A DNA stretch of 64,000 bases from an uncultured Thiotrichaceae bacterium (lineage in GTDB: Bacteria; Pseudomonadota; Gammaproteobacteria; SZUA-229), in the NCBI GenBank assembly GCA_964600755.1, contig CAZRKQ010000039.1, forward strand, positions 421 to 64,420, given 5' to 3'. Below the pieces are notes generated by a model, which worked only from the letters and a program-made list of their open reading frames with translations, made no database searches and had not been told where the DNA came from. Both the position numbers and the translations under genes were made by a program. Each line of letters opens with the position of its first letter. Position 1 is the first letter of the stretch. This document shows, in pieces, positions 15,364-32,284 of the stretch.

Positions 15364-15737
15364 TTCGACTCCGTGCACTCGTCAATCATCAGGGTCTTGC
15401 GTGCTTTATATATGCGTACTGCATATGACAGCATTACCGCGGTAACGCCGAGACCGATCACGATAGCGGTCAGCACCAGTGCTGATGGCACCGGGTCGAC
15501 CACGCGGTTGGCGGCTTCGGCCATGGGCACAGCATCATTGATGATCGGTGCCGTGCCGCCGGTAACGTAACCGATGGAAACCATGACCATGTGGATGCCG
15601 GTATCTGTCAGTGAGAAGCCGATGATCATGCGGATCATGTTGCGCTGCGTGAGCATGCCCCACAGGCCGACCAGCACCAGGCCAAGGCCGCTGCAAAGCA
15701 CAATCAGGGAAATCGGCAGGTCCGCGAGCAAACTCAT
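15357..15737 (-). CDS. MrpC / NuoK-like small membrane subunit
   Basis: 126 aa; LTQRNMIRMIIGFSLTDTGIHMVMVSIGY matches MrpC/NuoK RN(L/M)I(K/R)..IG.E pattern; 3 TM helices. Confidence 0.6.
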   Translation of the reverse strand: MSLLADLPISLIVLCSGLGLVLVGLWGMLTQRNMIRMIIGFSLTDTGIHMVMVSIGYVTGGTAPIINDAVPMAEAANRVVDPVPSALVLTAIVIGLGVTAVMLSYAVRIYKARKTLMIDECTESKW

Positions 15738-16474
15738 AACGGTCCGGTGTCCTCCTTGCGGAAGCGGTCGAGTACGGCGCTGAGCTCGAAACCGACCTTG
15801 AGGCCGACGAAAATATAGATCAGGGGTATAGCACCGGCGCTGAACAACGAGCCATAGCTGCCGAGGCCCATGATACGGTTGTCGAGGAAGCCCCCGGCCA
15901 GGAGCACGCCGAGTACGCCGACAACGACATAGCTGAAACCCGACAGTGATTCGATGATGGCGATCATCGTGCGGCTGATGTGTGATTCGGGCAATGCCAG
16001 CAACAGGAACATGGTGCCGGATGCGATGATCGCGCCACCCTGGAAGCCACCCCCGGGTGACAGGTGGCCATTGAGGAACACGTAGACGCCGAACAGGATC
16101 ACCATCGGCAGCAGCAGTTCAGTCGCAGTCTCGACGATCTCGCTGGCCGGCTTGTGCACACCCGCGGTTTCTTCCGCGCGGTCGCCCTGTTCAAGGTCTT
16201 CATCATCTTGCTTGCGACGGGTGCGGCGCAGCAGCAGGCCGACACCAGCGGCGGATATGAACAGTACGGTGACTTCACCCAGGGTGTCGAGACCGCGGTA
16301 GGTTACGACCACGGCAGTAACCAGGTTAGGTGCACCGAGTTCCTGCGGGCCATTTGCAGCGTAGTAATGACCGAGTTTGGACAACTCCGTGTTCTCGACG
16401 TAGTTCGAGGCGAGGTTGAAAAACACCATCGCCATCAGAAACAGCATCAGGAAGATGAAGATGCGTTTGATCAT
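15734..16474 (-). CDS. MrpB / MnhB-like membrane subunit
   Basis: 246 aa; NLVTAVVVTYRGLDTLGEV hallmark of MnhB/MrpA C-terminal domain. Confidence 0.65.
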   Translation of the reverse strand: MIKRIFIFLMLFLMAMVFFNLASNYVENTELSKLGHYYAANGPQELGAPNLVTAVVVTYRGLDTLGEVTVLFISAAGVGLLLRRTRRKQDDEDLEQGDRAEETAGVHKPASEIVETATELLLPMVILFGVYVFLNGHLSPGGGFQGGAIIASGTMFLLLALPESHISRTMIAIIESLSGFSYVVVGVLGVLLAGGFLDNRIMGLGSYGSLFSAGAIPLIYIFVGLKVGFELSAVLDRFRKEDTGPL

Positions 16475-16824
16475 TCAGCCTGCTCCTTTGCCTTTTCATC
16501 CTCATTACCGAGCTGGTCGATCACGGTTGTTTCGGTTTCACGGGTGCCAATGGTATGCGCCGCGCGTGCCAGCGCGTGCGATGACACCGGGTTGGTCAGC
16601 ATCACGAAGAAGATCAGGATGATGAGTTTCAGCGTCCATGTCGGATGCAGGAAAGCAATACCGATGAGGATCATGATGGTGCCGAGCGTGGTGGCCTTGG
16701 TGCCGGTCTGGATGCGGTTATAGGTGTCCGGCATGCGCAGCACACCCAGACCGGCCGAGAACAGGAACAGCGCACCGATGAGCAGGAACAGGTTACCGAC
16801 GATGTCAGCATAAAAATCGAACAT
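16471..16824 (-). CDS. MrpG / MnhG-like subunit
   Basis: Internal start MFDFYADIVGN... of ORF 16471..17169; GVLRMPDTYNRIQTGTKATTLG matches MnhG RLPDxYTRLHAxTKxxTLG; upstream part of the long ORF overlaps the neighbouring gene and reads as low-complexity. Confidence 0.6.
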   Translation of the reverse strand: MFDFYADIVGNLFLLIGALFLFSAGLGVLRMPDTYNRIQTGTKATTLGTIMILIGIAFLHPTWTLKLIILIFFVMLTNPVSSHALARAAHTIGTRETETTVIDQLGNEDEKAKEQAE

Positions 16825-16829
16825 GCCGC

Positions 16830-17081
16830 TCAGTCCCCGCCCTGCGTTTTGCGTATCGCGTAAAGAAAAATCATCGTGGTCAAACCCGAGCCGATCGAGG
16901 CTTCGGTCATGGCCACATCCGGTGCTGCCAGTACCACGTAGACCACGGACGCAAACAGGCTGGCGAGCCCCGCGCTGATGACAGCACTGAGCATGTTGTT
17001 GATTGTTACCGCCAGCAACCCGCTGATGAGGATGCCGGCGCAGAGCACGATAGTCAGCAGTGTTATTACAGGTATGGACAT
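16830..17081 (-). CDS. DUF4040 (MbhD / MrpA C-terminal-domain-like) small membrane protein
   Basis: 83 aa; LAAPDVAMTEASIGSGL matches the APDVAxTEAAVGAG motif of DUF4040. Confidence 0.5.
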   Translation of the reverse strand: MSIPVITLLTIVLCAGILISGLLAVTINNMLSAVISAGLASLFASVVYVVLAAPDVAMTEASIGSGLTTMIFLYAIRKTQGGD

Positions 17082-17089
17082 GACGTGAA

Positions 17090-17365
17090 TCAGATACCTT
17101 TTTCCAGGTAGCGGGCAACAGCCAGCACGCCGAGGAAGCTGAGCAGGCCATAGACCAGTGCCACGTCAAGGTAGATGAAGCGTTCCGCCTGGTGCGCGAG
17201 CAAGGCTATCAGCGCGATAGTGACGATCGTCAGCAGGTCGATCGCGACCACGCGATCGACCGTATCGGGACCGATCACGAGGCGGACGATACCGAAGACG
17301 ATGCTGAAAAAAATCAGCAGCGCTGAAATGATGATGGTGATTTCAGTCATGCCGGCTTCAGCCAT
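17090..17365 (-). CDS. MrpF / MnhF-like subunit
   Basis: 91 aa; VIGPDTVDRVVAIDLLTIV matches MnhF GPxxxDR(V/I)xAxD motif. Confidence 0.6.
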   Translation of the reverse strand: MAEAGMTEITIIISALLIFFSIVFGIVRLVIGPDTVDRVVAIDLLTIVTIALIALLAHQAERFIYLDVALVYGLLSFLGVLAVARYLEKGI

Positions 17366-17888
17366 AGATCACCTTCAGCAGTTTTTCGAAGCGGGCGGAG
17401 ATCTCTTCAGTAGCCGCCACCGGGTCAGTCGCGCTGACATTGATCCAGTGGATGAACAGGGAATCGTCTTTTATATCAACCACCAGAGTGCCCGGCGTCA
17501 ATGTGATGGAGTTGGCCAGGGCCAGACGGCCGATAGGGGATTTCAGCCTGGTCTTGATCTCGACAATACCGGGCTCGATATCGATACGAGGCGAGAACAC
17601 CAGTCGCATCACGTTAAGGTTGGCTTTTGTCAGTTCGATGAAAAACACACCCAGGTACACCAGGTAGTAGAAGAGCACTTTCGGTGACCAGCGAATGACA
17701 CTGTAGACCCGGGCGAAGGAAGCGAAAGCCAGCGCGATGGCAGCCGAGATTACAATACCTGCTAACAATGTGTCGTATGCAAGCGTGCCGTTGGCGATTA
17801 CCCAGATGAGCATCAGCGTCAGCCAGAGGTTGAGGAACTGCAGTGTTATATTTGTTGTTTTTTGCATCGGCAGCGAGTCTACTCTCAT
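17358..17888 (-). CDS. MrpE / MnhE-like subunit
   Basis: 176 aa; C-terminal-half hallmark LANSITLTPGTL of MnhE family. Confidence 0.65.
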   Translation of the reverse strand: MRVDSLPMQKTTNITLQFLNLWLTLMLIWVIANGTLAYDTLLAGIVISAAIALAFASFARVYSVIRWSPKVLFYYLVYLGVFFIELTKANLNVMRLVFSPRIDIEPGIVEIKTRLKSPIGRLALANSITLTPGTLVVDIKDDSLFIHWINVSATDPVAATEEISARFEKLLKVIYG

Positions 17889-17943
17889 GGCAGATTAAAT
17901 GAAATAATCTGCAAGGCATCTATAGTGTAAACACGCCATATTG

Positions 17944-18288
17944 TTAGCCCATAACCAAGGTTTCTATGACTTTATTGACCTGCATCAAATATATTTCTGC
18001 CCGCAGGACGACTGCAGCCTGAACTGATTGGCCATGAACGCATATCCAGCTTGCACCACAATAAATCGTGATGGTCCAATCGAGTGCAGAAACGCATGTC
18101 ACTGCCATCAAAAAAGCCCTTTCAGTATCAAATACAAGACCTGTGCCAATTATTTCTGAACTGAAAAACCACGAGGCATCAGTTACAACTGATGTGAATA
18201 ACTCTCTATCACCAGGTGTCATATCTTTGTAACAATTGAACAATGACATCCTGTAATATTCAGGGACGAAAAAGTAAATAGCGATCAT
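17944..18288 (-). CDS. Hypothetical protein upstream of the Mrp-Nuo operon
   Basis: 114-aa ORF, lower GC, no recognisable motif; may be spurious. Confidence 0.25.
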   Translation of the reverse strand: MIAIYFFVPEYYRMSLFNCYKDMTPGDRELFTSVVTDASWFFSSEIIGTGLVFDTERAFLMAVTCVSALDWTITIYCGASWICVHGQSVQAAVVLRAEIYLMQVNKVIETLVMG

Positions 18289-18404
18289 AGCCGTCTTTTT
18301 CTGTTACTGGGTTCATCTTGAATAAAATAAGACTGAATGAAAATGGCGTCATCTTCTTAGAGAGTAACTCCTGCATAGCAATCAACAACTGAGAACTAGG
18401 AATA

Positions 18405-19856
18405 ATGGAAAAGGCAGATATTGGTTTGATTGGACTGGCGGTAATGGGGCAGAACCTGGTTCTGAACATGGCCGACCATGGTTATCGTGTTGCAGTGTTC
18501 AACCGTACCAGCAGCAAGGTGGATGAGTTTATCAACGGGCCGGCAAAAGATAAAAATATCATCGGTACGTACGACCTGGCAGAGCTGGTGGCTGCACTGG
18601 AGAAACCGCGTAAGGTCATGTTGATGGTCAAGGCGGGCGAGGTAGTTGACCGGTTCATTGATCTGCTGTTGCATTTGCTCGAGCCGGGCGATGTCATTAT
18701 CGATGGCGGTAACTCATACTACCCGGACACCACACGACGCACTGCCTACCTTAGAGAAAACGATTTACGCTTTATCGGTACCGGTATTTCCGGCGGCGAA
18801 GAGGGTGCACGCCATGGGCCATCCATAATGCCGGGCGGCGACCCCGAGGCATGGCCGCTGGTAAAGGATATCTTCCAGTCAATTGCCGCAAAAGTCGATG
18901 GCGAGCCTTGCTGCCAGTGGGTCGGGCAGGATGGTGCCGGCCATTTCGTGAAGATGGTGCATAACGGTATCGAATACGGTGACATGCAACTGATCTGTGA
19001 AGCCTATGCGTTGATGGAGCATGCCCTGGGCATGGATTGCGAGCGCATGCATGAGGTATTCAAGCAATGGAACGCCGGCGTGCTGGATTCGTACCTGATC
19101 GAAATCACCGCCGATATACTCGCCATGAAAGATGAGGATGGCGAGCCGCTGCTCAATAAAATACTCGATACGGCGGGGCAGAAGGGCACCGGCAAGTGGA
19201 CCGGCATCAATGCCCTCGACCTCGGTGTGCCGCTGACCCTGATTGGCGAGGCCGTGTTTGCGCGCGTGCTGTCATCGTTAAAAGATGAACGCGTCCACGC
19301 GTCCGCCATCCTCGGGCCGCGCCCGGACCCTGTAGTCTCAGGCAGCGAGGAAGACAACATCATGGCCTTGCATGATGCCCTGTATGCTTCGAAAGTCATT
19401 TCCTATGCGCAGGGTTTCATGCTCATGCGCGAAGCGGCAAGGGAACAGGGCTGGGACCTCAACTATGGAGAAATTGCGTTGATGTGGCGCGGCGGCTGCA
19501 TCATCCGCAGCGCCTTCCTCGGTAATATCAAGACCGCCTACGATACCAATCCGCAACTGGAAAACCTGGCACTGGACACGTTTTTTGTCGATGCGCTCAA
19601 AGCGGCAGAAGCTGGCTGGCGCAAAGCCGTGACGCTGGCTGTAGCGAATGGCATTCCAGCACCCGCATTTGCCTCAGCCTTGTCGTACTTTGACGGCTAC
19701 CGCAGTGAACGTCTGCCCGCAAACCTGCTACAGGCCCAGCGCGACTACTTTGGCGCACATACTTATGAACGCGTTGACCGACCACGCGGTGAATTTTTCC
19801 ATACCGACTGGACCGGCAGCGGCGGCAAGGTTGCATCAACAACATACGATGTGTAA
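18405..19856 (+). CDS. gnd: 6-phosphogluconate dehydrogenase, decarboxylating
   Basis: 483 aa; GLIGLAVMGQNLVLNMADHG NADP-binding N-terminus and full-length Gnd architecture. Confidence 0.9.
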   Translation: MEKADIGLIGLAVMGQNLVLNMADHGYRVAVFNRTSSKVDEFINGPAKDKNIIGTYDLAELVAALEKPRKVMLMVKAGEVVDRFIDLLLHLLEPGDVIIDGGNSYYPDTTRRTAYLRENDLRFIGTGISGGEEGARHGPSIMPGGDPEAWPLVKDIFQSIAAKVDGEPCCQWVGQDGAGHFVKMVHNGIEYGDMQLICEAYALMEHALGMDCERMHEVFKQWNAGVLDSYLIEITADILAMKDEDGEPLLNKILDTAGQKGTGKWTGINALDLGVPLTLIGEAVFARVLSSLKDERVHASAILGPRPDPVVSGSEEDNIMALHDALYASKVISYAQGFMLMREAAREQGWDLNYGEIALMWRGGCIIRSAFLGNIKTAYDTNPQLENLALDTFFVDALKAAEAGWRKAVTLAVANGIPAPAFASALSYFDGYRSERLPANLLQAQRDYFGAHTYERVDRPRGEFFHTDWTGSGGKVASTTYDV

Positions 19857-20257: not shown

Positions 20258-20710
20258 ATGACTGCTACTTCAATCATGGACCCCCATCCAACGGTGGTGA
20301 AGTCAACCGACATCATCAAAACCGCGATTGGTTATATCATGGATAATCGCTACAGAAACCTGCCTGTTGTCGATGATGACGGCCATTACCTGGGCAGCTT
20401 CGGCGTCACCTGCCTGCTGAAGAATGTTTTACCGAAAGCAGTGTTGATGAAGAAGGGTCTGACCAGTGTTCCATTCGTGCAGGAAACGCTGTCTGACCTG
20501 CACAACCGTTTGATCGAACTTGAAAACGAGCCTGTTTCCACGTGCATGAACACGGAAGCCCAAACTGTTCCGCCGGATATGCCACTGGTTCAAACACTGC
20601 TGATTCTCTATCAAAACAAGGACAGTCTACCCGTGGTTGAATCTGATAACGGCAAACTGCTGGGTGTGATTTCCTACTGGGATGCCGGCGAAAAAATCCT
20701 GTCGGCTTAG
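20258..20710 (+). CDS. CBS-domain pair protein
   Basis: 150 aa; two CBS-like segments (NLPVVDDDGHYLGSFGV..., SLPVVESDNGKLLGVIS). Confidence 0.7.
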   Translation: MTATSIMDPHPTVVKSTDIIKTAIGYIMDNRYRNLPVVDDDGHYLGSFGVTCLLKNVLPKAVLMKKGLTSVPFVQETLSDLHNRLIELENEPVSTCMNTEAQTVPPDMPLVQTLLILYQNKDSLPVVESDNGKLLGVISYWDAGEKILSA

Positions 20711-20721
20711 CGGAGAATATT

Positions 20722-22059
20722 ATGCACGAGGCACATCAGGCTTCGATTATCTTTGGCCTGGATCCGGTATGGTATGCAGGTGTACTCTTTATCCTGACTT
20801 ACACTTTAATCGTGGCCGAAAAACTGAATCGTGCCATTGTTGCAGTCAGTGCGGCCAGCCTGATGGTTGTCGGTGGTGTACTTACCCAGGAGGCGGCTGT
20901 ACAGGGCATCGATTTCAATACCATTGGCTTGCTCACCGGCATGATGGTCATTGTCGGTATATCGCGCAAATCGGGCGTGTTCCAGTACCTTGCAATCTGG
21001 TCTGCGAAGCAGGTTAAAGCTGACCCGTGGGGCATACTTGTTATGCTGGTGCTGGTGACGGCAGTGCTCTCGGCCTTGCTCGACAACGTCACCACCGTGT
21101 TGCTGATCGCACCGGTAACGCTGTTGATAACGGACGAGCTCAAGGTCAATGCCTATCCCTACCTGTTCGCCATGATCTTTGCATCCAATATCGGCGGTAC
21201 CGCAACATTGATTGGTGATCCCCCAAATATCATGATCGGCAGTGCAGTGGGATTAAGCTTTAATGATTTCATCATTAACCTTGCGCCAATTGCTTTTGTG
21301 ATCCTGATGATGTTTATTGTACCGCTTTACTTTTTCTGGGGGCGCAAGCTTGAGGCCAGCAGTGAAAGACGGCAAAAAGTCATGAACTACCGTGAAGCCG
21401 ACGCCATTACTGATCATCGACTGTTGAAGCAATCGCTGTTTGTGATCGCGATCGTGATCACCGGTTTCATTATGTCCCACTCAATAGGCGCGGAGCCGGC
21501 TACTATTGCCCTGTTCGGTGCAGCTTTGCTGCTGATATTGGATAACCTGCCACGCAATATTGAAGAGCAGTCCGAAAATGTTCACAAAAGTTTCAGTGAG
21601 GTTGAATGGACCACCATATTCTTTTTCATAGGCCTGTTCATCGTTGTCTATGGCGTAGAGACAGTCGGCATACTCGAAATACTGGCTGAACATGTTATCA
21701 GCCTGACAGGTGGCGATCTCGGTGTCACCGCACTCACAATACTCTGGGTGTCCGCTGTTGCCTCGGCTATTGTGGATAATATTCCATTTGTGGCGACCAT
21801 GATTCCACTGATAGAAAGTATGGCAACTGATTTTGGTGGTACCGAGCAACTGATGCCGTTGTGGTGGTCGCTTGCGCTTGGCGCATGTCTCGGTGGTAAC
21901 GGCAGTCTTATAGGCGCAAGTGCAAACCTGATTGTTGCGGGTTTTGCCGAGCGGTCAGGTCAGCCGATCCGTTTTCTGCCGTTCATGTTGATGGCATTCC
22001 CGTTGATGCTGGTATCCATAGCAGTTAGCACGGTGTATGTCTACTGGCGATTTTTATAG
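20722..22059 (+). CDS. ArsB/NhaD-superfamily permease (anion/Na+ transporter-like)
   Basis: 445 aa, ~12 TM; IGGTATLIGDPPNIMIGSAV and LGGNGSLIGASANLIV duplicated permease motifs typical of ArsB/NhaD/CitMHS fold. Confidence 0.65.
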   Translation: MHEAHQASIIFGLDPVWYAGVLFILTYTLIVAEKLNRAIVAVSAASLMVVGGVLTQEAAVQGIDFNTIGLLTGMMVIVGISRKSGVFQYLAIWSAKQVKADPWGILVMLVLVTAVLSALLDNVTTVLLIAPVTLLITDELKVNAYPYLFAMIFASNIGGTATLIGDPPNIMIGSAVGLSFNDFIINLAPIAFVILMMFIVPLYFFWGRKLEASSERRQKVMNYREADAITDHRLLKQSLFVIAIVITGFIMSHSIGAEPATIALFGAALLLILDNLPRNIEEQSENVHKSFSEVEWTTIFFFIGLFIVVYGVETVGILEILAEHVISLTGGDLGVTALTILWVSAVASAIVDNIPFVATMIPLIESMATDFGGTEQLMPLWWSLALGACLGGNGSLIGASANLIVAGFAERSGQPIRFLPFMLMAFPLMLVSIAVSTVYVYWRFL

Positions 22060-22101: not shown

Positions 22102-24102
22102 TTAGTTTAAGTCCATGGTGGATTCCGGTTTTGTCCCTGCTTCGAATAATGTCATCGACCTGGGTTGGCATACGCGAGAGCAATACTGGTTGAGTTCATC
22201 ATAAAGCTGTTCTGCTTTATTCAGGTAGCGGCGTGAAAAATGGAATGGAACCAGGCGAGAAACTCCAGCTTGTGTGGCAATCTCACCACAGGCGCGCGTC
22301 GTTAAATGACCATTCTGTGTTGCATGGTCTACATCAGCTTCAACAAATGCGCTCTCGCAAAATAATGTATGCGCATGTTGTGCAAAGTGGATTAACTGCT
22401 GACGATTGTCTTGCGTGTCTGCAAGATCGGTGGCATACACCAGTTTTTTTCCGGGTGTTATCAGCACCAGTTCATCAGCCAGGGTGCCGGCGTATTCATA
22501 ACTTTCGTCAGGCAGCTGAATCGCTGCTGACAGATTGTTACTGAGCAACGCCTGTTTTAACTCGTTCAGCCAGGGTCCCGGATCAAGTCCGCGTGCCTTG
22601 AGTCGATCTTTGCGAATGTTAATCTGTTGGTCGGCTTTAAGTGCATAAGCAATTACCGGCGTACCCTGATGATCAAGTGTCAGGCCACGTATGCGAAAAC
22701 CTGTCTCAACAAGCAGTTCACCATTCACCGCTGTTTTTTCATTGAATAACTGCGCTTTAACATTGCCGGCCAGTAAACGAAAACATTTCAAGCGGTCGTT
22801 GTGTAGCTCCATCACCTCAAAGGCCGGAGCATTATTTTCTATACGATCCCACAGAATGCCTTGCAGAAAACCTGCAATATGTCGGGCCAGGCCTGGCGGG
22901 CCATAGAGCCGACACACCGGATAATCGCCTATGCGCGAACGTAATAACCAGAGAAAGCCGCTGATGTGATCCATATGTGCATGACTGATAAATACATCAG
23001 TTACCTGGTGCGCAATGCGTGCTGGCAGACGCCCACCATCACCCAGGTCAAACAACAAACTGCGTCGTTGATGGCGCATGCGCAGATGTAACAATGGATC
23101 ACCAAACACGCCATTAACCAACGCCACATCAACAGCGCCGACACGGCCGACGATGCGTGGGCCATTATTGACATCAATTGATGGCAGCACGTCGTTTGGC
23201 GGCAGATAGTCAAAGCGCTCGGCGGCATAAGGTTTTGCGGTTTCAATATAGCCATCTTGACTCCGTGCAGCATCACGTATCAACAGTGTGTCTGCGTCAC
23301 CTGCTACGCCTGAAAGCGTAACTGTCAACAAATCAGACTCAACATGCTCTACCTCGCCCATGGCTAAGGTACGATTCGTTTGCAACAAGGCTACCTGTTT
23401 ACCTGGCCAGGCGCTGGTTTCAGCTGGCAATGGCGGTGTACCGGTTACATTCAGCCTGGCAAGATCAAGTGTTTGCTCTGTCGCATTGGCCAGATAAGCA
23501 TCCCACTGCGCGGTGCGCTGCCGGGCCCGTACTCGTTTACCAGGCCGTTTCGCCTCGGTGGCTGCATTAACCACGAATACCTCTAGCGGCAATGCACATA
23601 ATTCCTCCAGCAGTGGCGGCGGCCGCCCAGGTGCAGTTAATGCCAGAATTACATCCACAGCTGTCGCTTCAACCAGTCCTTGAAGAAGCTCGCGTCCGGT
23701 GACACCGCGGACCACACCGGGTGCATCGATCAACGCCATACCGGCTGGCAACTGCTGTGCCAGTATTCTGGCTGCAGATACCAGGGGTAAACGAAAGCGT
23801 CCTGCATCTAATGTGCATAACGCTGCAATGTCGGCGACCTGCCAGTGATCATCTCGCCACACTGCTGTCGATACTGAACCAGGCACACCAAACGCCGGCG
23901 AACCGGGATCGGCGTTCAGACAACAACATGGGCGTTGCAAATCAAAAAGAACTTTCGCTAACTGCGCAGCTAATGTCGATTTACCAACACCCATTGGGCC
24001 GAACAGTAATACACGCCGGTCATGTTTCATCACCGTGTTGACAATATCTGCAGCATCCAGTGCCAGTACTGGCAAATCATCAACGGTCTTGCTGGTATTC
24101 AT
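22102..24102 (-). CDS. Fusion: Clp1/Grc3-like P-loop polynucleotide kinase domain + metallo-beta-lactamase-fold hydrolase domain
   Basis: 666 aa; N-terminus LLFGPMGVGKSTLAAQLAKVLFDLQRPCCCLNADPGSPAFGVPGSVS resembles Clp1 Walker A followed by LD.GQ...PG element, then IDAPGVVRG...VDVILAL; C-terminal half has MBL HxHxDH motif (ISHAHMDHISGF) and downstream His/Asp ligands. Confidence 0.55.
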   Translation of the reverse strand: MNTSKTVDDLPVLALDAADIVNTVMKHDRRVLLFGPMGVGKSTLAAQLAKVLFDLQRPCCCLNADPGSPAFGVPGSVSTAVWRDDHWQVADIAALCTLDAGRFRLPLVSAARILAQQLPAGMALIDAPGVVRGVTGRELLQGLVEATAVDVILALTAPGRPPPLLEELCALPLEVFVVNAATEAKRPGKRVRARQRTAQWDAYLANATEQTLDLARLNVTGTPPLPAETSAWPGKQVALLQTNRTLAMGEVEHVESDLLTVTLSGVAGDADTLLIRDAARSQDGYIETAKPYAAERFDYLPPNDVLPSIDVNNGPRIVGRVGAVDVALVNGVFGDPLLHLRMRHQRRSLLFDLGDGGRLPARIAHQVTDVFISHAHMDHISGFLWLLRSRIGDYPVCRLYGPPGLARHIAGFLQGILWDRIENNAPAFEVMELHNDRLKCFRLLAGNVKAQLFNEKTAVNGELLVETGFRIRGLTLDHQGTPVIAYALKADQQINIRKDRLKARGLDPGPWLNELKQALLSNNLSAAIQLPDESYEYAGTLADELVLITPGKKLVYATDLADTQDNRQQLIHFAQHAHTLFCESAFVEADVDHATQNGHLTTRACGEIATQAGVSRLVPFHFSRRYLNKAEQLYDELNQYCSRVCQPRSMTLFEAGTKPESTMDLN

Positions 24103-24292
24103 GCTATTCCGTCTTAAACGTATCGTTTAATTATCAGTTAATTGTACTTACATATTAAGCATACCGAATAAAAGGGGAGGAGGGTTTAAATAATGTCTAA
24201 TTTCACATAATGCTTGAATATTAATCCATCCGTTCACTTTATTATCCTGTTCTATATGAATAAACTGACGGAATAACACAAGGAGAATACAC

Positions 24293-24646
24293 ATGGAAGT
24301 TAAAGCCACGATCAAGCCGGGCCAGAATGGTACCAAGCGTTACACCAGGCAGTATGGAGACCAGCTCGTATGCGTCCGATACCGCTATGACAAACGCAGA
24401 CAGAAACGCCTGACAACCGTCGAACTCATCGTCTATGAGCAGGACTGGATCCAGGGAATAACCATACCACCCGATAAAATCGTACCCATAAGAATTGCCT
24501 ACGGCGAGACAGAATTAAGGGAAAAAGTAAAAGTAGCGGGTGCGTATTGGGACAGCAAGAAAAAATTCTGGAAGTTGAGCTTCAGGCTGGTGTATGCGCT
24601 TGGGTTGGAAAAGAGAATAATCGATGAATTTGATCATTTGGAATAA
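24293..24646 (+). CDS. Hypothetical small basic protein (possible cassette ORF)
   Basis: 117 aa; no motif recognised; AT-rich flanks; followed by AAAGTTAGCC motif at 24751. Confidence 0.4.
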   Translation: MEVKATIKPGQNGTKRYTRQYGDQLVCVRYRYDKRRQKRLTTVELIVYEQDWIQGITIPPDKIVPIRIAYGETELREKVKVAGAYWDSKKKFWKLSFRLVYALGLEKRIIDEFDHLE

Positions 24647-24818
24647 TACTAAAATAACTAATTTACATATAAAGATATTTAGTTACCATATTTAGAAATT
24701 GGATATATAGATGAATAAATTATTACTACTTTTAGAAACGTCCCATACTTAAAGTTAGCCGCTAAGCGTATTTCCTAATTGATGCCAAAAGGCACACATC
24801 TATGCTATCCTTTCCCAC

Positions 24819-25097
24819 ATGAAGCCCATTAATTGGAGTCCTGAAAAGAATCAACAACTTATAGAAGAGCGTGGCATTTCCTTTGAAGATGTTGTTTTCT
24901 ATTTACAGCAAGACGCACTATTAGATGATATTGAACATCCGAATGGAGATAAATATCCAAATCAGCGAATCTTTGTTATCAGCATTGATGATTACGTGCA
25001 CCTTGTTCCATATATTGAAGATCGAAAGGAAATATTTCTAAAGACAATCATACCTAGTAGAAAAGCTACAAAGCAGTATCTTGGAGAAGAGTCATGA
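24819..25097 (+). CDS. brnT: BrnT-family (DUF497) ribonuclease toxin
   Basis: 92 aa; INWSPEKNQQLIEERGISFEDV and C-terminal IIPSRKATKQYL match BrnT W(D/S)xxKNxxNxxxHGVSFEE ... IISARRATxxER pattern; 4-bp overlap with downstream antitoxin. Confidence 0.7.
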   Translation: MKPINWSPEKNQQLIEERGISFEDVVFYLQQDALLDDIEHPNGDKYPNQRIFVISIDDYVHLVPYIEDRKEIFLKTIIPSRKATKQYLGEES

Positions 25098-25414
25098 GCA
25101 AATCAAAACTTTCTAAAGAGGAAAAAGAAATTCTCAAAGATTTCGAGGCTGGTGAATTCAAATCGGTTCTTACATCAAAACGTAAAAAAGCGATTCAAGC
25201 CTCTGCAGAGGAAACCTTTAAAAAGGATAAACGAATCAATATTAGGATCTCGAGCCGTGATCTTGAGTCATTACAACGTAGAGCATTAGAAGAAGGTATA
25301 CCCTATCAAACTTTGGTATCTAGTGTTCTACATAAATATGTGTCAGGTAGTTTGCGTGATATAGCGGCTAACAAGGCGCTCAACAAGGATGTGCAAAAAA
25401 CGCGCACCCGTTAG
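25094..25414 (+). CDS. brnA: BrnA-family antitoxin (RHH/CopG-like)
   Basis: 106 aa; RISSRDLESLQRRALEEGIPYQTLVSSVLHKYVSG typical of BrnA C-terminal RHH region. Confidence 0.7.
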   Translation: MSKSKLSKEEKEILKDFEAGEFKSVLTSKRKKAIQASAEETFKKDKRINIRISSRDLESLQRRALEEGIPYQTLVSSVLHKYVSGSLRDIAANKALNKDVQKTRTR

Positions 25415-25428
25415 CTTAAACGTTAGGT
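25366..25428 (+). mobile_element. attC (59-base-element-like) recombination site, cassette boundary after brnTA
   Basis: GGCTAACAAGGCGCTCAACAAGGATGTGCAAAAAACGCGCACCCGTTAGCTTAAACGTTAGGT: RYYYAAC-like start, internal GC palindrome region, terminal GTTAGGT core (GTTRRRY); overlaps brnA 3' end as is common for cassettes; homologous to site at 26127-26189. Confidence 0.5.
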
Positions 25429-25478
25429 TTTTTATAAGAGTGTATTAAATTTTTTTAAGCAATAATGAGGGAAAAACG

Positions 25479-26099
25479 ATGAAATTATATTACTCCCCTG
25501 GCTCTGGCGCACTTGCTTCACACATCACCATTCGAGAACTGAACTTGGATGTAGATCTAATTAAAGTAGATGTTCAAGTTGAGAATAAAACAGAAACCGG
25601 GGATGATTATCATAATATCAACCCTAAAGATTATGTACCGTATCTGGCTATAGATTCAAATATCAATTTATCGGAAGGTGTAGCAATACTTCAATATTTA
25701 GCTGACCAAAACCCTGAAGGCAATATGACTCCGCTTGAAGGAACCCCAGAACGGTATCAACTTCAGGAATGGTTGACATTTATAGCTACAGAGCCTCAAC
25801 GAATTCTTGGTTCTTTCTTCATTCCAGATAATCTTACCGAAGCGGGACTCACGTTTGCGAAAAACAGATTGCATCATAGGCTGGCGATTATGGAAGATCG
25901 ACTTACTCAAAATGAATACCTCGCAGGAACAAATTACACAATAGCTGATGCATACGCATTTGCTATCTTGAATTGGATACCTGCTTTTAATCTTGATATT
26001 GATATAAGCGCCTACAAGAATCTTAGTATCTATTTGGACAAAATTAGACAGCGAGAAGCCGTTCAAACAGCTATGAAAGAAGAGGGATTGTTAGTGTAA
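25479..26099 (+). CDS. Glutathione S-transferase (cassette-borne)
   Basis: 206 aa; N-terminal thioredoxin-like GST fold (MKLYYSPGSGALASHI) and C-terminal alpha domain. Confidence 0.8.
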   Translation: MKLYYSPGSGALASHITIRELNLDVDLIKVDVQVENKTETGDDYHNINPKDYVPYLAIDSNINLSEGVAILQYLADQNPEGNMTPLEGTPERYQLQEWLTFIATEPQRILGSFFIPDNLTEAGLTFAKNRLHHRLAIMEDRLTQNEYLAGTNYTIADAYAFAILNWIPAFNLDIDISAYKNLSIYLDKIRQREAVQTAMKEEGLLV

Positions 26100-26126
26100 T
26101 CTACAATTATTTATGCGCGAGTCTAA

Positions 26127-26189
26127 ACCTAACAAATCACTCAACCGGACGCGCTATATAGCGCGCGCCCGTTAGCTCAACCGTTAGCG
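26127..26189 (+). mobile_element. attC (59-base-element-like) recombination site downstream of GST cassette
   Basis: ACCTAACAAATCACTCAACCGGACGCGCTATATAGCGCGCGCCCGTTAGCTCAACCGTTAGCG aligns block-by-block with the aadA1 59-be (GCCTAACAATTCGTTCAAGCCGACGCC...GCGCGGCTTAACTCAAGCGTTAGAT): inverse core ACCTAAC, central palindrome GCGCGCTATATAGCGCGC, terminal GTTAG core. Confidence 0.6.
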
Positions 26190-26283
26190 AGCAAAATTAG
26201 CGTCAAAATAAATCCGGGTCAGAGAGCAATTCGTTTTAATATAAAGATCAACAGCGCCTGGATCGATTGATTACTTTCTTTGG

Positions 26284-26320
26284 CAAAGACAAAAGCCCGC
26301 ATAAGCGGGCTTTTGTCTTG
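26284..26320. terminator. Strong hairpin between convergent GST cassette and minus-strand membrane-protein gene
   Basis: caaagacaaaagcccgc-ATAA-gcgggcttttgtcttg, 16-17 bp perfect stem; lies 15 bp beyond the stop of the minus-strand gene. Confidence 0.5.
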
Positions 26321-26336
26321 CAGAATGGCAAGTGAC

Positions 26337-27530
26337 TTAACTATTCAGGTGTCTGCCCGCCCAGTTGTCCGCTATGGCCTTGGCCGCATCTTTGCCGCCG
26401 AAACCAAACGCGAGTGCAATGGCGACTGCGATGCTGCCCAGGGTGAAGCCAAAGGCCATGTTGACGATATTATCCGCCAGGCCCATCGCTCTCAGGCCCA
26501 TTGCCAGCACGAGGCCGAGAATGGCGAAACGTGCGATATTGGCTATGCCGGCACTGCTGCTACTGGATAGCTTCTGGTAGGCGATATTACCGAGGAAATT
26601 ACCAATCACCAGGATAATACTGCCGACCAGGATGCCACCACCAAACTCGATCACGCGCGCGAATATAAGCGAGATCACTTCGATGCCTAGCACATTGACG
26701 GCAGCCGTTGCTGCAGCCAGCATCGAAAAGAACATGATGGTGCCGCCGATCAGTTTTGTCACGGTGAAGCTTTCCGAGAAAATGCCGCTGATTCCCGCTT
26801 TCTCGGGTAATGCATTGATATGCATACCATCGAGCAGGCTACTCAGGATGTGTATCACGAACTTGGTTACCAGGTAGGCGACCAGCATGATTATACCTGC
26901 GCCGATGATATTCGGAATGGCTGCCATCAGCTTTTCGATCATTGCCGATGCCGGTTCCGAGATAGCGGGTATGCTCAGCACGCCCAGTGCGGATACAGCA
27001 ATGGGCAACAGGATGATGATGAAAACAAAAGCGCTTCCGAGCCCGGATACTTTTATTTCGTTATTACCCGTCCTGGATGCAATTTGTTCGTCAACCTTGC
27101 CAAGCGCCATTGAAACCATGCCTGACACAAGCTTTGCGATGATCCAGCCGGCATAACCAATCACGCCTGCGCCGATAATGTTTGGCACGGCACTGGTGAA
27201 CTTGTTAACCATGTCCTTCAGCGGCTCGAGTACATCGGTGAGTCCGAAATATTGCAGCACCGCAATCAATAAGAATATGGTTAGTAAGGCTTTTACCAGT
27301 GACGCAATGGGTGAGGCAAAGTCCACTGATGAGCCATCCTCACTGGAACGGTACAGAAAACCCACTTTCTTGAGTACACGCGCGATAATTCCCGAGATAA
27401 TCTTTACAACAAAAAGACCGGCTATGAGTATGAGCAGACCAACTATTGCATGACCCAGTTGCCCGGAAACGGCAGGTCCGAGTGCTTCTGTTATCCTGTT
27501 TAAAGTTTCTTCAATCATTTCTTTCTCCAA
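26337..27530 (-). CDS. Polytopic membrane protein with repeated conserved-TM-helix motifs
   Basis: 397 aa; repeated IPNIIGAG(V/I)I...K(L/F)V modules reminiscent of the conserved TM helix repeat seen in MscS-related proteins. Confidence 0.45.
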   Translation of the reverse strand: MEKEMIEETLNRITEALGPAVSGQLGHAIVGLLILIAGLFVVKIISGIIARVLKKVGFLYRSSEDGSSVDFASPIASLVKALLTIFLLIAVLQYFGLTDVLEPLKDMVNKFTSAVPNIIGAGVIGYAGWIIAKLVSGMVSMALGKVDEQIASRTGNNEIKVSGLGSAFVFIIILLPIAVSALGVLSIPAISEPASAMIEKLMAAIPNIIGAGIIMLVAYLVTKFVIHILSSLLDGMHINALPEKAGISGIFSESFTVTKLIGGTIMFFSMLAAATAAVNVLGIEVISLIFARVIEFGGGILVGSIILVIGNFLGNIAYQKLSSSSSAGIANIARFAILGLVLAMGLRAMGLADNIVNMAFGFTLGSIAVAIALAFGFGGKDAAKAIADNWAGRHLNS

Positions 27531-27604
27531 TTTAAGACCGGGCGGTTAGTACTCCCGGCCTTTTTCATTGATCCACCATTTCTACCTTATGGCAATACGT
27601 TTCT

Positions 27605-28012
27605 TTAGTGGGTGACCATGGGCTCTATGTTTTTCGCCTGCTCGACCCAATTGCTTACCTTGCTAGTAGCGGGTGACACTTTGCACAAGTGCTTTACGCC
27701 GTTCACTTCAGCCATTTTTTCGGCCAGGTTGTCCGCATTGCGTGTACGAAGTTCCTTAACAGTGTCTACGCCGGCGCCTTCAAGCAGTTCTGCGAACTGC
27801 CCGGCAACACCGTTGATCCTGAACAGGTCGCACATGTTTACCCACTTGAGGATCATTTTCTCATTGAGCTCAGTCTTTTCTGCCAGCGCCTTGCGGCCCT
27901 TTTTGCTGGCACCTGCCTCGAGCAGGTTCATTGTTGTTTTGATGCCTGCCTCGTTTAACATGGCAGCGTATTTTGGACCTATACCTTCTATATCCTTAAT
28001 ATTTTTAGACAT
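27605..28012 (-). CDS. DUF4332-like helix-hairpin-helix protein
   Basis: 135 aa; two DIEGIGPKYAAMLNEAGIKT / INGVAGQFAELLEGAGVDTV HhH-like repeats. Confidence 0.4.
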   Translation of the reverse strand: MSKNIKDIEGIGPKYAAMLNEAGIKTTMNLLEAGASKKGRKALAEKTELNEKMILKWVNMCDLFRINGVAGQFAELLEGAGVDTVKELRTRNADNLAEKMAEVNGVKHLCKVSPATSKVSNWVEQAKNIEPMVTH

Positions 28013-29057
28013 TAGATATTCCTCTCTTTGGACTTATATTGTTTATAAAATTAGCTGAACAGATTTTTTGCCATAACCAGTGCACCATCACCGGGATTCT
28101 CTGTCAGTGAAGACAGTGTGTCAGTCACGCCAGAGCTGCTCACAAATAATTCTGATATGGTCGAAATAGTTGAGTTCATAACCCATACCATCGGTAGCAA
28201 CTATTACGATCGATGCTGTCTCTGGAAGAAACGATGCGGCCTGTTCTGTCGAGAAGCTCGCTGTGCTCAAAGCTTCAGTTAATGTTCCCGCATGCTCTTC
28301 AAATATCCGCCCGACTAATTCCATAGCCGTCTCCGTTAAATATTTTCAATTCAATAATGCAGGCTGTGGACAAATAATATGAACTCGCTAGTTGATACAC
28401 AATTGCCAGTCGTCATCGTTAACTATTGTTTACAATTAAGAATAAAAGGGATCAGACCCATTTACCAAGTCTAAGAAGAAGAAATCGGAGATTTATTCAA
28501 AAGCTTAATCACATTCTTGTCATTCCCACGAAAGTTGTATTCTAGAAATGCCTGTTAATGCGAGCTTTTTATTAGCCTTTACTAATTTGCATCACATAAT
28601 CGAAAGGAGTAAATAAGAAGAACACTTCTAATGCATAGAGATATTAAGGAGGGTGCGGAAATTGAATGGATATTAGCCAGGAAAACAATTTATTGTCATT
28701 TTTATAAATCTCGTTTTGGTCCCTGATGAAAATTAAATAATTGATTAAATTACACCACATTTACTTATATGCCCAAATGTCGTAAAACAAATACGACATT
28801 TGGGTCCTCTAATTAAAGTTAGCTGCATTGATAATCAGGCTGAAATTATATGAGCCATACAGAAATCCACAGGTCACATCGGGTAGGATGGTTACGCGCA
28901 GCAGTGCTAGGCGCTAACGGCAGGAGTAGGCCGAATATTTGGTGTAGTTGCATGATGTGGCATTTAATAAAAGCGCTCACGTCAATATACACAGCTAACA
29001 ATCGGGTCAAGTTGACACCAAAAAGCGGCGCAACTTACCCAAGACGTAAACCGTAAT

Positions 29058-29570
29058 ATGATAACGAGCAAAGTAATAATTGATGACGCAAAAATACTGA
29101 TAAAGCATGAATCTTGTTCAGGTCCCAGTTGGTGTCGAAATAAAGAGATATTCATCGAATCTAATAGCGCTGAAAAGAACACACTATCAACGATAAAATT
29201 CGATGATTATTTGGATATTTATATATTTTGGGAGTCGTTTACTTCAGCCACATCGGTAGAAGTACTTTATGTGCCAGAAACTGGAGTAATGTTTATTGGG
29301 GCGGGAACTGTAAGTGCTCGAATTAGCACAAAAGACAGTTCACTCCTGGATTCAGATGACGTATGTTTATTTTGGGGGTTTGATCGTCACAAAGAAAAAT
29401 ATGTGCTAGAAACTGGTGAATTGGAGTGTTTTTTATATAACCTCGAAGGTAAGAAAATATCAACTGCGGTTGTTGATCCCCCGTATGAAACAAAAATATT
29501 GGAAAAAGGAATTAATTTTGAATCAATTGTGTCAGGAAGCACTTGGCTACTATATGAAGAAAACGTCTAA
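29058..29570 (+). CDS. Hypothetical protein (AT-rich putative cassette ORF A)
   Basis: 170 aa; low GC; no recognisable motif; 37 bp upstream of ORF B (possible two-gene cassette). Confidence 0.4.
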   Translation: MITSKVIIDDAKILIKHESCSGPSWCRNKEIFIESNSAEKNTLSTIKFDDYLDIYIFWESFTSATSVEVLYVPETGVMFIGAGTVSARISTKDSSLLDSDDVCLFWGFDRHKEKYVLETGELECFLYNLEGKKISTAVVDPPYETKILEKGINFESIVSGSTWLLYEENV

Positions 29571-29607
29571 CAAGTCATTCAAAAGGACTAAACCTACCCT
29601 ATAAAAA

Positions 29608-30033
29608 ATGGCAGACATAAAAGATTTAGAAACCTGCAACTACTTTCCAGTCGATAGTGTAAGTTTACTGTTTGTTGGATGGTTGTCTGGGGGATCCGAC
29701 TACGAAACAGGAAAAGTAAGCGAGGACTTTTTCAATAGGCTTTGTGAGCTATCTCATAACCCATGGCAACCGGTTGTAAGCGCAGGCATGCATTTTTGTG
29801 AACTTTGCCAATTTAATCCACCGGCTTTCACAAAGAATATATTTATTCCATATAAAGGTGTCATATATGTAGCTCCAGAGGCAATTACTCACTATATAGC
29901 AGTGCATTGGTATATGCCGCCTGCTATTTTTATTGAAGCAGTTCTGGCGTGCCCTGAGATGCAAAGCATGGAATATAAAAAAGCCATTTTGCAAAACGGT
30001 GGCAGAGGGTTAGTAAAATCAATAAAGGTCTAA
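29608..30033 (+). CDS. Hypothetical Cys-rich protein (putative cassette ORF B)
   Basis: 141 aa; conserved-looking HFCELCQF segment; followed by attC-like sequence. Confidence 0.4.
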   Translation: MADIKDLETCNYFPVDSVSLLFVGWLSGGSDYETGKVSEDFFNRLCELSHNPWQPVVSAGMHFCELCQFNPPAFTKNIFIPYKGVIYVAPEAITHYIAVHWYMPPAIFIEAVLACPEMQSMEYKKAILQNGGRGLVKSIKV

Positions 30034-30044
30034 TAAGTACATTA

Positions 30045-30103
30045 ATTGCGCTCCCATTGGCCGCCGGACGCGCTACCGTGCGCCGCTTATGTAAACGTTA
30101 TGC
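30045..30103 (+). mobile_element. attC-like site (weaker), after ORF B
   Basis: ...ggccgCCGGACGCGCTAccgtgcgccgcttatgtaAACGTTATGC shares the CCGGACGCGCTA block and aaCGTTAnG terminus with attC at 26127-26189; left inverse core not obvious. Confidence 0.3.
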
Positions 30104-30167
30104 ACTGTAAATGATGACTAGAGTATTGTGGGCCACATTAGGATAACTACCACTTACCATATGTGCT

Positions 30168-30536
30168 ATGTTATTCCTTACGGAATGGCGATTGTTGGGT
30201 GGTCAGTATCCAAAAGTGGGCTATGGTATTTTTATGCTTGGGGCCGTTGTTAGTGTCGTAAATATGTATACCTCGTATCTGCGATATCCTGTCCATCGAG
30301 TACTGGGTAAATCTCGAGACAGCTATAAGCATGTTTCAGGATTCCCGCTGATTGGTGGGTTAGTGCTAATCGGTGCTTGGCTTTTACCGCAAAGCCTTTG
30401 GTTAAGTTTAGTAACCGCATTGTTAATGTTACTAGATACAGGGGGGGTATTTAGTGGTTTGTTGCTAAGGTTTGGGCTGATCCTTTTTTTTGGAGGAAGG
30501 AAAATGAATAACAAGTCATTCGTGTGGGACGTCTAA
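30168..30536 (+). CDS. Hypothetical small membrane protein (putative cassette ORF C)
   Basis: 122 aa, 3-4 predicted TM segments. Confidence 0.4.
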   Translation: MLFLTEWRLLGGQYPKVGYGIFMLGAVVSVVNMYTSYLRYPVHRVLGKSRDSYKHVSGFPLIGGLVLIGAWLLPQSLWLSLVTALLMLLDTGGVFSGLLLRFGLILFFGGRKMNNKSFVWDV

Positions 30537-30579
30537 AGCGCTGCGCGCTTTATCCGCCTCCACAATTCTAACGTTAGCT
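30531..30579 (+). mobile_element. attC-like site (weaker), after ORF C
   Basis: gtctAAAGCGCtgcGCGCTTTatccgcctccacaattctAACGTTAGCTg: central palindrome plus aaCGTTAGCT terminus as in the other sites. Confidence 0.3.
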
Positions 30580-30603
30580 GTTCTAAACTGTAGTAATTAA
30601 AAT

Positions 30604-30984
30604 ATGGACGAAAAAATTACATTCACCAATCACGATGATTATTTACTTGTTGGCATCACAGACAAGGTCATAACTGTTCAGCGCGCCCAGGAAATACTGG
30701 CTCGAATCGGGGAGGAGTGCGCTAGCCTGAAATGTAAGAAAGTTCTTCTAGATGAAATGTCTGTTGAGAAGCGAGAGGTTCCTCCAAATGAAATTAAAAA
30801 ACTGGCATTTGATCTTAAAAAAAACAAACTGAATAAAGTCTATATGGCATTTTTATGCCAACCTCATCTTATCGGTTATGATTCACACTTACTAAGTTTA
30901 TACACTTATATGACTGAATTTATAATCCAGCATTTCACCAATAAAGATAAAGCAATTAGCTGGCTTAATAAAAAAGATAGCTAA
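30604..30984 (+). CDS. Hypothetical protein (putative cassette ORF D)
   Basis: 126 aa; AT-rich; no confident motif. Confidence 0.4.
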   Translation: MDEKITFTNHDDYLLVGITDKVITVQRAQEILARIGEECASLKCKKVLLDEMSVEKREVPPNEIKKLAFDLKKNKLNKVYMAFLCQPHLIGYDSHLLSLYTYMTEFIIQHFTNKDKAISWLNKKDS

Positions 30985-31130
30985 CTATACATTTCTATAT
31001 TTATCGAATTTATATTAATAGCGCTTATATTAATGAAAACAGGCCGTGGCCACCGTATATTCAGGATGGTTAGTCGGGTATTCCACAGCAGTGCATTACA
31101 CTCAGTTGAACCGTATAGATATATAGCTTT

Positions 31131-31595: not shown

Positions 31596-31692
31596 TGAGT
31601 GCGGCATTATCCCATAGGGCTGTAAGCGTAGATTTGATCTGATTCAGCTCTAGCTGGTTAATTTAGACAGGCTTTGAGCTATACATATATTC

Positions 31693-32079: not shown

Positions 32080-32284
32080 TGTCATACCATAAGGACGTGA
32101 TGAAAATGACTTGCCATTCACTATGGCATGGCTGCGTCGTCATGATCAATACGAAGACTGATACCGTCGTTGCATAACTCTGGCTAAACTATCCGGGAAT
32201 ATCTGAGTGTGGTAGTCAGTTGTAATGCTGTTGTTTAATTGTTCTAATAGTCTTATCCCATTCAGCTCGAAAAGGAAACAGGCC

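Follow-up and report, generated by a model that had tools for sequence, protein, structure and literature searches.

A 64,000-nt window (the whole stretch of DNA that was analyzed) of contig CAZRKQ010000039.1, from an uncultured Thiotrichaceae bacterium, contained a gene that fuses a Clp1-like polynucleotide kinase to an RNase Z-like metallo-beta-lactamase (MBL) domain. The gene is one open reading frame (ORF) on the minus strand (22102..24102), which starts with ATG, encodes 666 amino acids, and has its stop codon at 22102-22104. The fusion gene is real because the E-values of the profile matches were far past chance and at least 120 full-length two-domain homologues were found. An earlier note on this DNA had read the product as a Clp1-like kinase joined to an MBL-fold nuclease, which was confirmed by Pfam and NCBIfam profiles and by Foldseek, and the motifs that it quoted were all located in the protein (Table 1). 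The chances appear about even that this protein is a self-contained bifunctional enzyme for the healing of RNA ends, which would combine a 5'-OH kinase with a remover of 3' ends or 2',3'-cyclic phosphates and would probably act on tRNA.

The N-terminal half matched Pfam CLP1_P (PF16575) with 53.5 bits (gathering score of 26.6, E=3.4e-14). The remaining P-loop families of Pfam and NCBIfam, including shikimate kinase and the GPN-loop family ATP_bind_1, matched at the Walker A only and were all under cutoff; the shikimate kinase profile reached an E-value of about 0.006 on the Walker A alone. The AlphaFold2 model had a predicted local distance difference test score (pLDDT) of about 85 over residues 10-290. 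In Foldseek comparisons with the PDB, this half matched human CLP1 in the TSEN complex (8hmy_E, E=1.8e-12), C. elegans Clp1 with RNA and nucleotide (4ohy_A, E=3.6e-12, and relatives at about 4e-12), yeast Clp1, Grc3 (7y18_B, 1e-9), and NOL9 (9dun_A, 6e-6). The alignments to Clp1, Grc3, and NOL9 each spanned about 290-350 columns, and therefore both the P-loop core and the subsequent beta domain were covered. The first P-loop fold outside the Clp1 family was matched at E=7e-4, with a probability of 0.38. A shikimate or other small-molecule kinase, which the earlier note had named as the reading to check, was thus not supported, given that CLP1_P was above cutoff and the top P-loop folds were all Clp1, Grc3, or NOL9. 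A profile of the N-terminal half searched against PDB sequences returned mostly generic Walker A matches (RecA, p97, and midasin), and only C. elegans Clp1 covered residues 28-85, including the Walker B/DPG region (E=2e-4). Because the PDB sequence search was weak here, the kinase assignment leans on Pfam and on structure.

Four kinase motifs paired one by one with human CLP1 in a profile-to-sequence alignment, namely Walker A on Walker A, ELDVGQGSVSIPGT with NADPGSPAFGVPGS, INTCGWVKG with IDAPGVVRG, and the Arg-rich lid with RPGKRVRARQRTAQW; this pairing is a lead rather than proof. The window protein shared with Clp1, Nol9, and Grc3 the P-loop fold and the C-terminal beta domain, the Walker A, a D-x-G motif with its Asp, the P/T-x-G clasp position, and the Arg-rich lid. 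In contrast to these proteins, it lacked the eukaryotic N-terminal domain and had an MBL nuclease attached; furthermore, the clasp Trp of Clp1 appeared to be replaced by Val, and the Gln of DxGQ by Ser at position 68, where the canonical Gln was kept in 15 of the 58 aligned members.

The C-terminal half was matched end to end (residues 324-643) by NCBIfam PRK02126 "ribonuclease Z," with 284.3 bits against a cutoff of 315 (E=1.2e-84), and by Pfam Lactamase_B_2 (E=5.4e-12). The TIGR02651 equivalog gave 98.2 bits against a cutoff of 293, and its match began at model position 25. The top PDB sequence matches were E. coli RNase Z/ZiPD, human ELAC1, and B. subtilis RNase Z, and the top folds were complexes of B. 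subtilis RNase Z with tRNA (2fk6_A, 3e-14; 4gcw_A, 8.6e-13). Further Foldseek matches included ELAC1 (3zwf, 2e-9) and ELAC2 (9ey0, 1.9e-9), and the folds of PhnP, PqqB, and cAMP phosphodiesterase scored far below RNase Z. The domain thus scored as RNase Z by both sequence and fold, and not as a glyoxalase II (hydroxyacylglutathione hydrolase), which had been the corresponding check on this half. It shared the MBL fold and the HxHxDH plus H, D, H, H ligands with the short-form RNase Z enzymes (B. subtilis RNase Z, E. coli RNase BN/ZiPD, ELAC1, and TMS5), and carried counterparts of their other motifs, including an HST-like GHLT, a HEAT-like FCES, and the flexible arm with its GP motif. Within the arm, the stretch lkaRGldPGPwlneLKqa aligned to the arm of E. 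coli RNase Z; the motif was retained in 51 of 58 members, and the conserved residues were G509, W511, L515, and K516. Unlike the short-form enzymes, the window protein has an N-terminal extension of about 320 residues that holds the kinase.

Two standalone relatives, P0237 (from a metagenome-assembled genome of Planctomycetota) and P0241, in a size range of 328-337 aa, passed the PRK02126 cutoff with 371-375 bits. Because the fusion members scored 270-284 bits throughout (270-275 for members other than the window protein), below these standalone proteins, the MBL domain of the fusion looks like a close relative or a sister of the standalone PRK02126 subfamily, which is itself distant from canonical RNase Z.

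Table 1. Features of the fusion gene and its upstream region (positions in the window; residues of the 666-aa product).
Feature	Residues	Position	Strand	Evidence or remark
Complete ORF, Clp1-like kinase and RNase Z-like MBL fused	1-666	22102..24102	-	666 aa, both domains matched by profiles
Clp1-family P-loop polynucleotide-kinase core	about 10-205	23488..24075	-	Pfam CLP1_P, Foldseek, pLDDT about 85
Walker A GPMGVGKST	35-43	23974..24000	-	fits GxxxxGK[ST]; K41 in 50/58 deep members
Walker-B-like LNADPGSPAFGVPG	62-75	23878..23919	-	counterpart of D-x-G-Q in Clp1, with Asp65 as putative catalytic base
Clasp-like IDAPGVVRG	125-133	23704..23730	-	aligns to Clp1 INTCGW, Val for Trp; register tentative
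Arg-rich lid RPGKRVRARQRTAQW	186-200	23503..23547	-	R192 52/58, R196 56/58, W200 52/58
Beta-rich domain C-terminal to the P-loop	206-290	23233..23487	-	model and roughly 300-column alignments to Clp1
Disordered linker (predicted)	291-317	23152..23232	-	pLDDT below 50
RNase Z-like metallo-beta-lactamase domain	318-650	22153..23151	-	profiles, PDB sequence matches, Foldseek
HxHxDH zinc-binding motif HAHMDH (H374, H376, D378, H379)	374-379	22966..22983	-	conserved 58/58
Flexible arm (exosite) and GP motif RGLDPGPWLNELKQ	about 495-546	22465..22620	-	aligned to E. coli RNase Z arm
Other MBL metal/catalytic motifs	D559 (YATD), E583 (FCES), H599 (GHLT), H621 (PFHFSRR)	22228..22437	-	57-58/58
Divergent intergenic region 5' of the fusion gene		24103..24292	.	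sigma-70-like hexamer pair at 24158-24130, minus strand

The fusion is widely conserved. Full-length homologues with an identity of 60% or higher numbered at least 120, every one with both Pfam domains, and their automated annotations included "Clp1/GlmU family protein," "ATP/GTP-binding protein," and "ribonuclease BN / polynucleotide 5'-kinase." When each GTDB species was scanned through a single genome, relatives were present in 269 species genomes, mostly of sulfur-oxidizing and methanotrophic Gammaproteobacteria. These carriers included Chromatiales, Thioalkalispiraceae, Ectothiorhodospiraceae, Sedimenticola, Thiodiazotropha, and Methylococcaceae, the latter with cultured Methylobacter and Methylomicrobium, and a few others belonged to Desulfobulbia, Nitrospinota, and Nitrospiraceae. 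An exhaustive HMMER search of 1.84 billion cluster representatives returned 348 matches at E<=1e-30, and the most divergent full-length fusions among them had an identity of about 31%. Conservation was assessed in an alignment of 58 sequences, which comprised the window protein and 57 full-length representatives at 50% clustering. The MBL residues D352, H374, H376, D378, H379, H478, D559, E583, H599, H621, S623, and R625 were kept in 57-58 of the 58 members. Among the kinase residues, K41 was kept in 50, D65 in 54, P128 in 55, G129 in 52, R132 in 48, R192 in 52, R196 in 56, and W200 in 52. Because of this conservation across the 58 members, both domains are, judging from the alignment, under purifying selection, which is absolute for the MBL domain and holds for the kinase in most lineages. 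High-identity matches of half length were mostly fragments on short contigs. At one locus (L092, 3488-5471), the two halves were encoded separately, by a kinase ORF of 310 aa and an MBL ORF of 368 aa with an overlap of 56 nt; the kinase ORF was present on two contigs, and the CBS and CitMHS neighbors of the locus were the same as in the window. The fusion has either been split naturally at this locus or become a pseudogene through a frameshift.

The genomic neighborhood was compared over 8 kb on each side of the fusion gene at 78 non-redundant loci (80 in the clustering), and no conserved operon partner was found across the 78. The upstream gene was divergent in 38 loci and close and co-directional in only 20, and the fusion gene is usually monocistronic. 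The flanks differed even between fusions at 82% identity. Three kinds of neighbor that occurred in a minority of loci were informative. A gene for RtcA, the RNA 3'-phosphate cyclase (RTC and RTC_insert, 249 bits), was present near the fusion in six loci, always within two genes and never more distant, in varying orientations. The fusion proteins of these loci were 51-63% identical, with the exception of one pair, and represent at least five lineages; a rough estimate of the number of such loci under chance alone was below 0.1. The RtcB ligase and the RtcR regulator were absent from the RtcA-containing loci, and the window itself lacked RtcA. In L090 (1623-5324), and likewise in L091, the order was RtcA, a 179-aa THUMP protein (domain match of 24.4 bits, cutoff of 20.6), and the fusion. 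The genes were separated by about 50 bp and constitute an apparent three-gene operon without RtcB. A standalone THUMP protein beside RtcA is unusual in itself. Homologues of the L090 THUMP protein also flanked the fusion in L049 and L077, and THUMP-domain neighbors were counted at three loci. A SixA-like phosphatase (His_Phos_1) adjoined the fusion in four distinct loci.

RNase Z and other MBL nucleases act by metal-dependent hydrolysis, which leaves a 3'-OH and a 5'-phosphate. Las1 (HEPN) and TSEN are metal-independent nucleases, which leave 5'-OH and 2',3'-cyclic phosphate ends. Because an RNase Z cut already leaves a 5'-phosphate, the most likely substrates of the kinase are 5'-OH ends from other RNases that are metal-independent. 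The proposal of the earlier note that one polypeptide cleaves RNA and then phosphorylates the same cut is therefore chemically unlikely; its broader suggestion of a role in RNA repair or processing fits the sporadic RtcA and THUMP neighbors. In the end-healing model, the N-terminal Clp1-family domain would phosphorylate 5'-OH polynucleotide ends at the expense of ATP, and a disordered linker of about 27 residues would join it to an RNase Z-type binuclear-zinc phosphodiesterase. The latter would yield a clean 3'-OH by ridding the 3' end of a trailer, of damaged nucleotides, or of a 2',3'-cyclic phosphate, and the retained flexible arm would steer it to tRNA-like structure. By analogy with short-form RNase Z, the protein would probably form a homodimer that acts on tRNA or RNAs resembling it. 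Metal-independent ribonucleases, such as toxins and stress RNases, and not its own MBL domain, would generate the 5'-OH and 2',3'-cyclic phosphate ends to be healed. The resulting 5'-phosphate and 3'-OH ends would suit CCA re-addition, ATP-dependent ligation, or 5'-phosphate-stimulated decay. In the lineages that carry them nearby, RtcA could supply 3'-phosphate ends to the pathway as 2',3'-cyclic phosphates, the THUMP protein could aid recognition of the acceptor end, and the SixA-like phosphatase could strip leftover monoester. Both halves of this scheme have precedents. The short-form RNase Z ELAC1 and rice TMS5 take the 2',3'-cyclic phosphate off ΔCCA-tRNA, which lets the CCA-adding enzyme rebuild the tRNA end (PMC10275265, PMC11897441), and Clp1 of Thermus scotoductus is a proven bacterial RNA 5'-kinase (PMC6777427).

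Several observations weigh against the end-healing model. The MBL domain fell under both curated RNase Z cutoffs (PRK02126 and TIGR02651), and the canonical N-terminal PxKxRN region of the short-form enzymes was unmatched; the local sequence is NGVFGDPLLHLR, in which no PxKxRN is visible. The two kinase positions that appear to differ from Clp1, the clasp Trp and the Gln of DxGQ, are RNA-contact positions, and about 8 of 58 members lacked the Walker A lysine. The geometry between the domains was unpredictable, with a predicted template modeling score (pTM) of 0.46 for the AlphaFold2 model and disorder across the linker (residues 291-317). Furthermore, the neighborhood was unconserved in about 90% of the loci, and neither RtcB nor any other ligase recurred within 8 kb on either side across the 78 loci. 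Because the RNase Z cutoffs were missed and two Clp1 RNA-contact positions appear to differ, the protein should be described as Clp1-like and RNase Z-like, and as an equivalog of neither.

Three other functions of the fusion were weighed against end healing. The protein could be a housekeeping RNase Z/BN for 3' processing or decay of tRNA and mRNA, in which the Clp1-like domain is not a kinase but a regulatory, RNA-binding, or scaffold module, similar to the inactive yeast Clp1. The near-invariance of the MBL residues would suit this function, as the kinase motifs were kept in only about 85-95% of members, with the Walker A lysine missing from 8 of 58; the apparent absence of the clasp Trp and the mostly monocistronic position of the gene on the chromosomal backbone point in the same direction. 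However, the putative catalytic Asp65 and the lid arginines R192 and R196 were put at "more than 90%" of members (counts of 54, 52, and 56 of 58), and the RtcA, THUMP, and phosphatase neighbors suggest end chemistry. In addition, the CCA end was encoded by all nine distinct tRNA genes in the loci of the relatives; judging from this small sample, these organisms seem to have no need of RNase Z to clear trailers from CCA-less precursors in the canonical way. A housekeeping RNase Z with a non-kinase partner domain is thus rather unlikely. Direct coupling, in which the tethered kinase phosphorylates the 5' end that the MBL domain has just created by cutting RNA, in a Las1-Grc3-like manner, would account for the presence of a nuclease and a kinase within one polypeptide, and the structural matches did include Grc3 and NOL9 (from Las1-Grc3 and LAS1L-NOL9) and CLP1 (from TSEN-CLP1). 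It is nevertheless unlikely. The 3'-OH and 5'-phosphate of an MBL cut would leave the kinase no substrate there, Las1 and TSEN owe their 5'-OH products to metal-independent cleavage, and the recurrent neighbor RtcA works on 3'-phosphate ends made by other nucleases.

The substrate could also be something other than an RNA end. A nucleotide or small-molecule kinase might be joined to a phosphodiesterase for 2',3'-cyclic nucleoside monophosphates or a phosphoribosyl cyclic phosphate (PhnP-like), or the protein might process DNA ends. Weak matches to a cyclic-nucleotide-degrading phosphodiesterase and to PhnP would agree with a non-RNA substrate, as would the phosphoenolpyruvate (PEP)-utilizing, pyruvate-kinase-like, and pst genes that flank the fusion in L001. 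Prim-Pol proteins near the fusion in L049 and L027, a PolX-like HHH_8 protein in five loci, and the ability of archaeal and Thermus Clp1 to phosphorylate DNA as well (PMC6777427) would also agree with it. On the other hand, RNase Z with tRNA and Clp1 with RNA were far ahead of all other matches in both sequence and fold, the tRNA-binding flexible arm was kept, and the small-molecule neighbors did not recur, which makes a non-RNA substrate very unlikely. An artifact of frameshift, misassembly, or read-through of two genes has a negligible probability. The overlapping separate ORFs of L092 are what such an artifact might look like, but the 666-aa product was identical on three independent assemblies, and the distribution of the fusion (at least 120 full-length homologues, 269 species, and 57 deep full-length representatives) ruled this explanation out.

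The fusion gene is solitary in the window. A CBS-domain gene and a gene for a CitMHS/ArsB-type transporter (20258-22059) are convergent with it, and divergent from it is a 117-aa ORF at 24293-24646 (+) without a Pfam match, which recurs with the identical fusion gene on the three independent assemblies (L083-L085). The sigma-70-like hexamer pair in the intergenic region was no better than chance. No tRNA genes or Rfam families were detected in the window. Scans with PADLOC and PHROGs returned only generic P-loop and MBL matches, and therefore gave no link to defense systems or phages. The backbone at 12193-19856 and 32225-36160 consisted of ordinary housekeeping genes, including those for a Mrp/NADH-quinone-type antiporter subunit (1061 aa), 6-phosphogluconate dehydrogenase (18405-19856), and an AsmA-family protein of 1311 aa. 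In a relative at 82% identity (L086 and L087), DsrC adjoined the fusion, which fits a sulfur-oxidizing gammaproteobacterial host.

Other neighbors were observed in subsets of the loci. L049 (5537-10879) contained a co-directional run of a His_Phos_1 phosphatase, the THUMP protein, a small Prim-Pol (PF09250 and PriCT_1, 261 aa), the Clp1-RNase Z fusion, and a CheR-type S-adenosylmethionine-dependent methyltransferase, which may form an extended nucleic-acid end-processing module. A CheR-like gene was also located directly downstream of the fusion in L014. A nitroreductase-family protein (cluster c2) was present in 11 of 80 loci, often divergent and immediately upstream of the fusion. PGA_cap, a CapA-like metallophosphatase with a signal peptide (cluster c5), was present in 7 of 80 loci and was immediately upstream and co-directional in four. 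The nitroreductase and PGA_cap neighbors are not accounted for by the RNA-end model, and as partners of the fusion they were judged, together with the GGDEF-EAL and CheR-like neighbors, to be incidental or unexplained. A small acidic DUF6763 protein of about 100-115 aa occurred near the fusion in at least six loci, in two of which its gene directly preceded the fusion gene in the same orientation; its sites (cluster c7) included L010 (1746-2084), L011, and L012, and also L089 (11316-11621) and L092 (2631-2981).

To the right of the fusion gene, from 24.1 to 32.2 kb, the guanine-cytosine (GC) content fell to 0.38-0.40 from about 0.50, and the fusion gene itself (0.51) equaled the chromosomal backbone to its left. 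This segment (24100-32220) contained small, mostly co-directional ORFs, including a BrnT/BrnA toxin-antitoxin pair (24819-25414), a glutathione S-transferase (25479-26099), and a DUF7919 protein (29608-30033), and several of its ORFs had no Pfam match. A mechanosensitive-channel-like gene with normal GC (26337-27530, minus strand) breaks the segment. Ends of the attC-like type AACGTTAG[G/C] were seen by eye 3' of four ORFs (near 25422, 26183, 30094, and 30571), and a 26-nt direct repeat was located at 25401 and 26162. A crude attC search with folding thresholds gave nothing convincing, and no integrase was identified beside the segment. These features are consistent with an integron-like cassette array without an adjacent integrase (CALIN-like). 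The earlier note had placed the fusion gene at the border of a cassette array, which is plausible given the low GC, the small ORFs, the BrnT/BrnA pair, and the attC-like ends. The fusion gene itself was rejected as an integron cassette, as its GC is backbone-like and it is chromosomal in 269 species with varied flanks.

Among known systems, the pairing of CPSF73 with Clp1 in eukaryotic RNA 3' processing, to which the protein had initially been likened, proved a loose analogy; Las1-Grc3, TSEN-CLP1, the end healing of Pnkp and Trl1, and the cyclic phosphatase activity of ELAC1 and TMS5 are closer. Las1-Grc3 (LAS1L-NOL9) and TSEN-CLP1 likewise couple a Clp1-family kinase physically to an RNA endonuclease. 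However, they do so as separate subunits with metal-independent nucleases, whereas the window protein has a covalently fused metal-dependent MBL domain that should leave a 5'-phosphate. T4 Pnkp, bacterial Pnkp (with Hen1), and fungal and plant Trl1 follow the same logic of a 5'-OH kinase combined with a 3'-end phosphoesterase, and the likeness is architectural only. These enzymes use a T4-PNK-type kinase and a HAD, calcineurin-like, or 2H phosphoesterase, whereas the window protein uses the unrelated Clp1-type and MBL families, has no ligase domain, and had no recurrent ligase neighbor. Compared with the RtcA/RtcB operon, the RtcA gene was close to the fusion in only 6 of 78 loci, and about 90% had no RtcA nearby. 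Both domain superfamilies are known and had already been labeled by annotation pipelines, but their combination in one bacterial polypeptide was not found described: a full-text search of the literature returned no account of a Clp1-RNase Z fusion, although a prior mention in the RNA-repair survey of Burroughs and Aravind (2016) is possible. The Clp1 survey by Saito et al. (2019) described bacterial Clp1 proteins as 333±74 aa in length and "extremely rare" (14 of 1,543 species), and contained no mention of a lactamase domain (PMC6777427).

It is tentatively possible, though doubtful, that the fusion represents a hitherto unrecognized fourth end-healing architecture, a bacterial tRNA/RNA repair enzyme whose Clp1-type 5'-kinase and RNase Z-type 2',3'-cyclic phosphatase or 3' trimmer treat both ends of one break or acceptor stem, with help from RtcA, THUMP, and SixA-like proteins in some lineages. 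Such an enzyme would restore or license RNAs after damage by ribotoxins or stress RNases and would be a bacterial counterpart of ELAC1/TMS5 recycling. The hypothesis is directly testable because the fusion is a single soluble polypeptide and cultured hosts (Methylobacter and Methylomicrobium) are available. If it is true, evolution would have solved the chemistry of two-ended RNA healing independently with the Clp1-kinase/RNase Z fusion, and the view of Clp1-family kinases as extremely rare in bacteria would need to be revised, given the 269 GTDB species in this one family.

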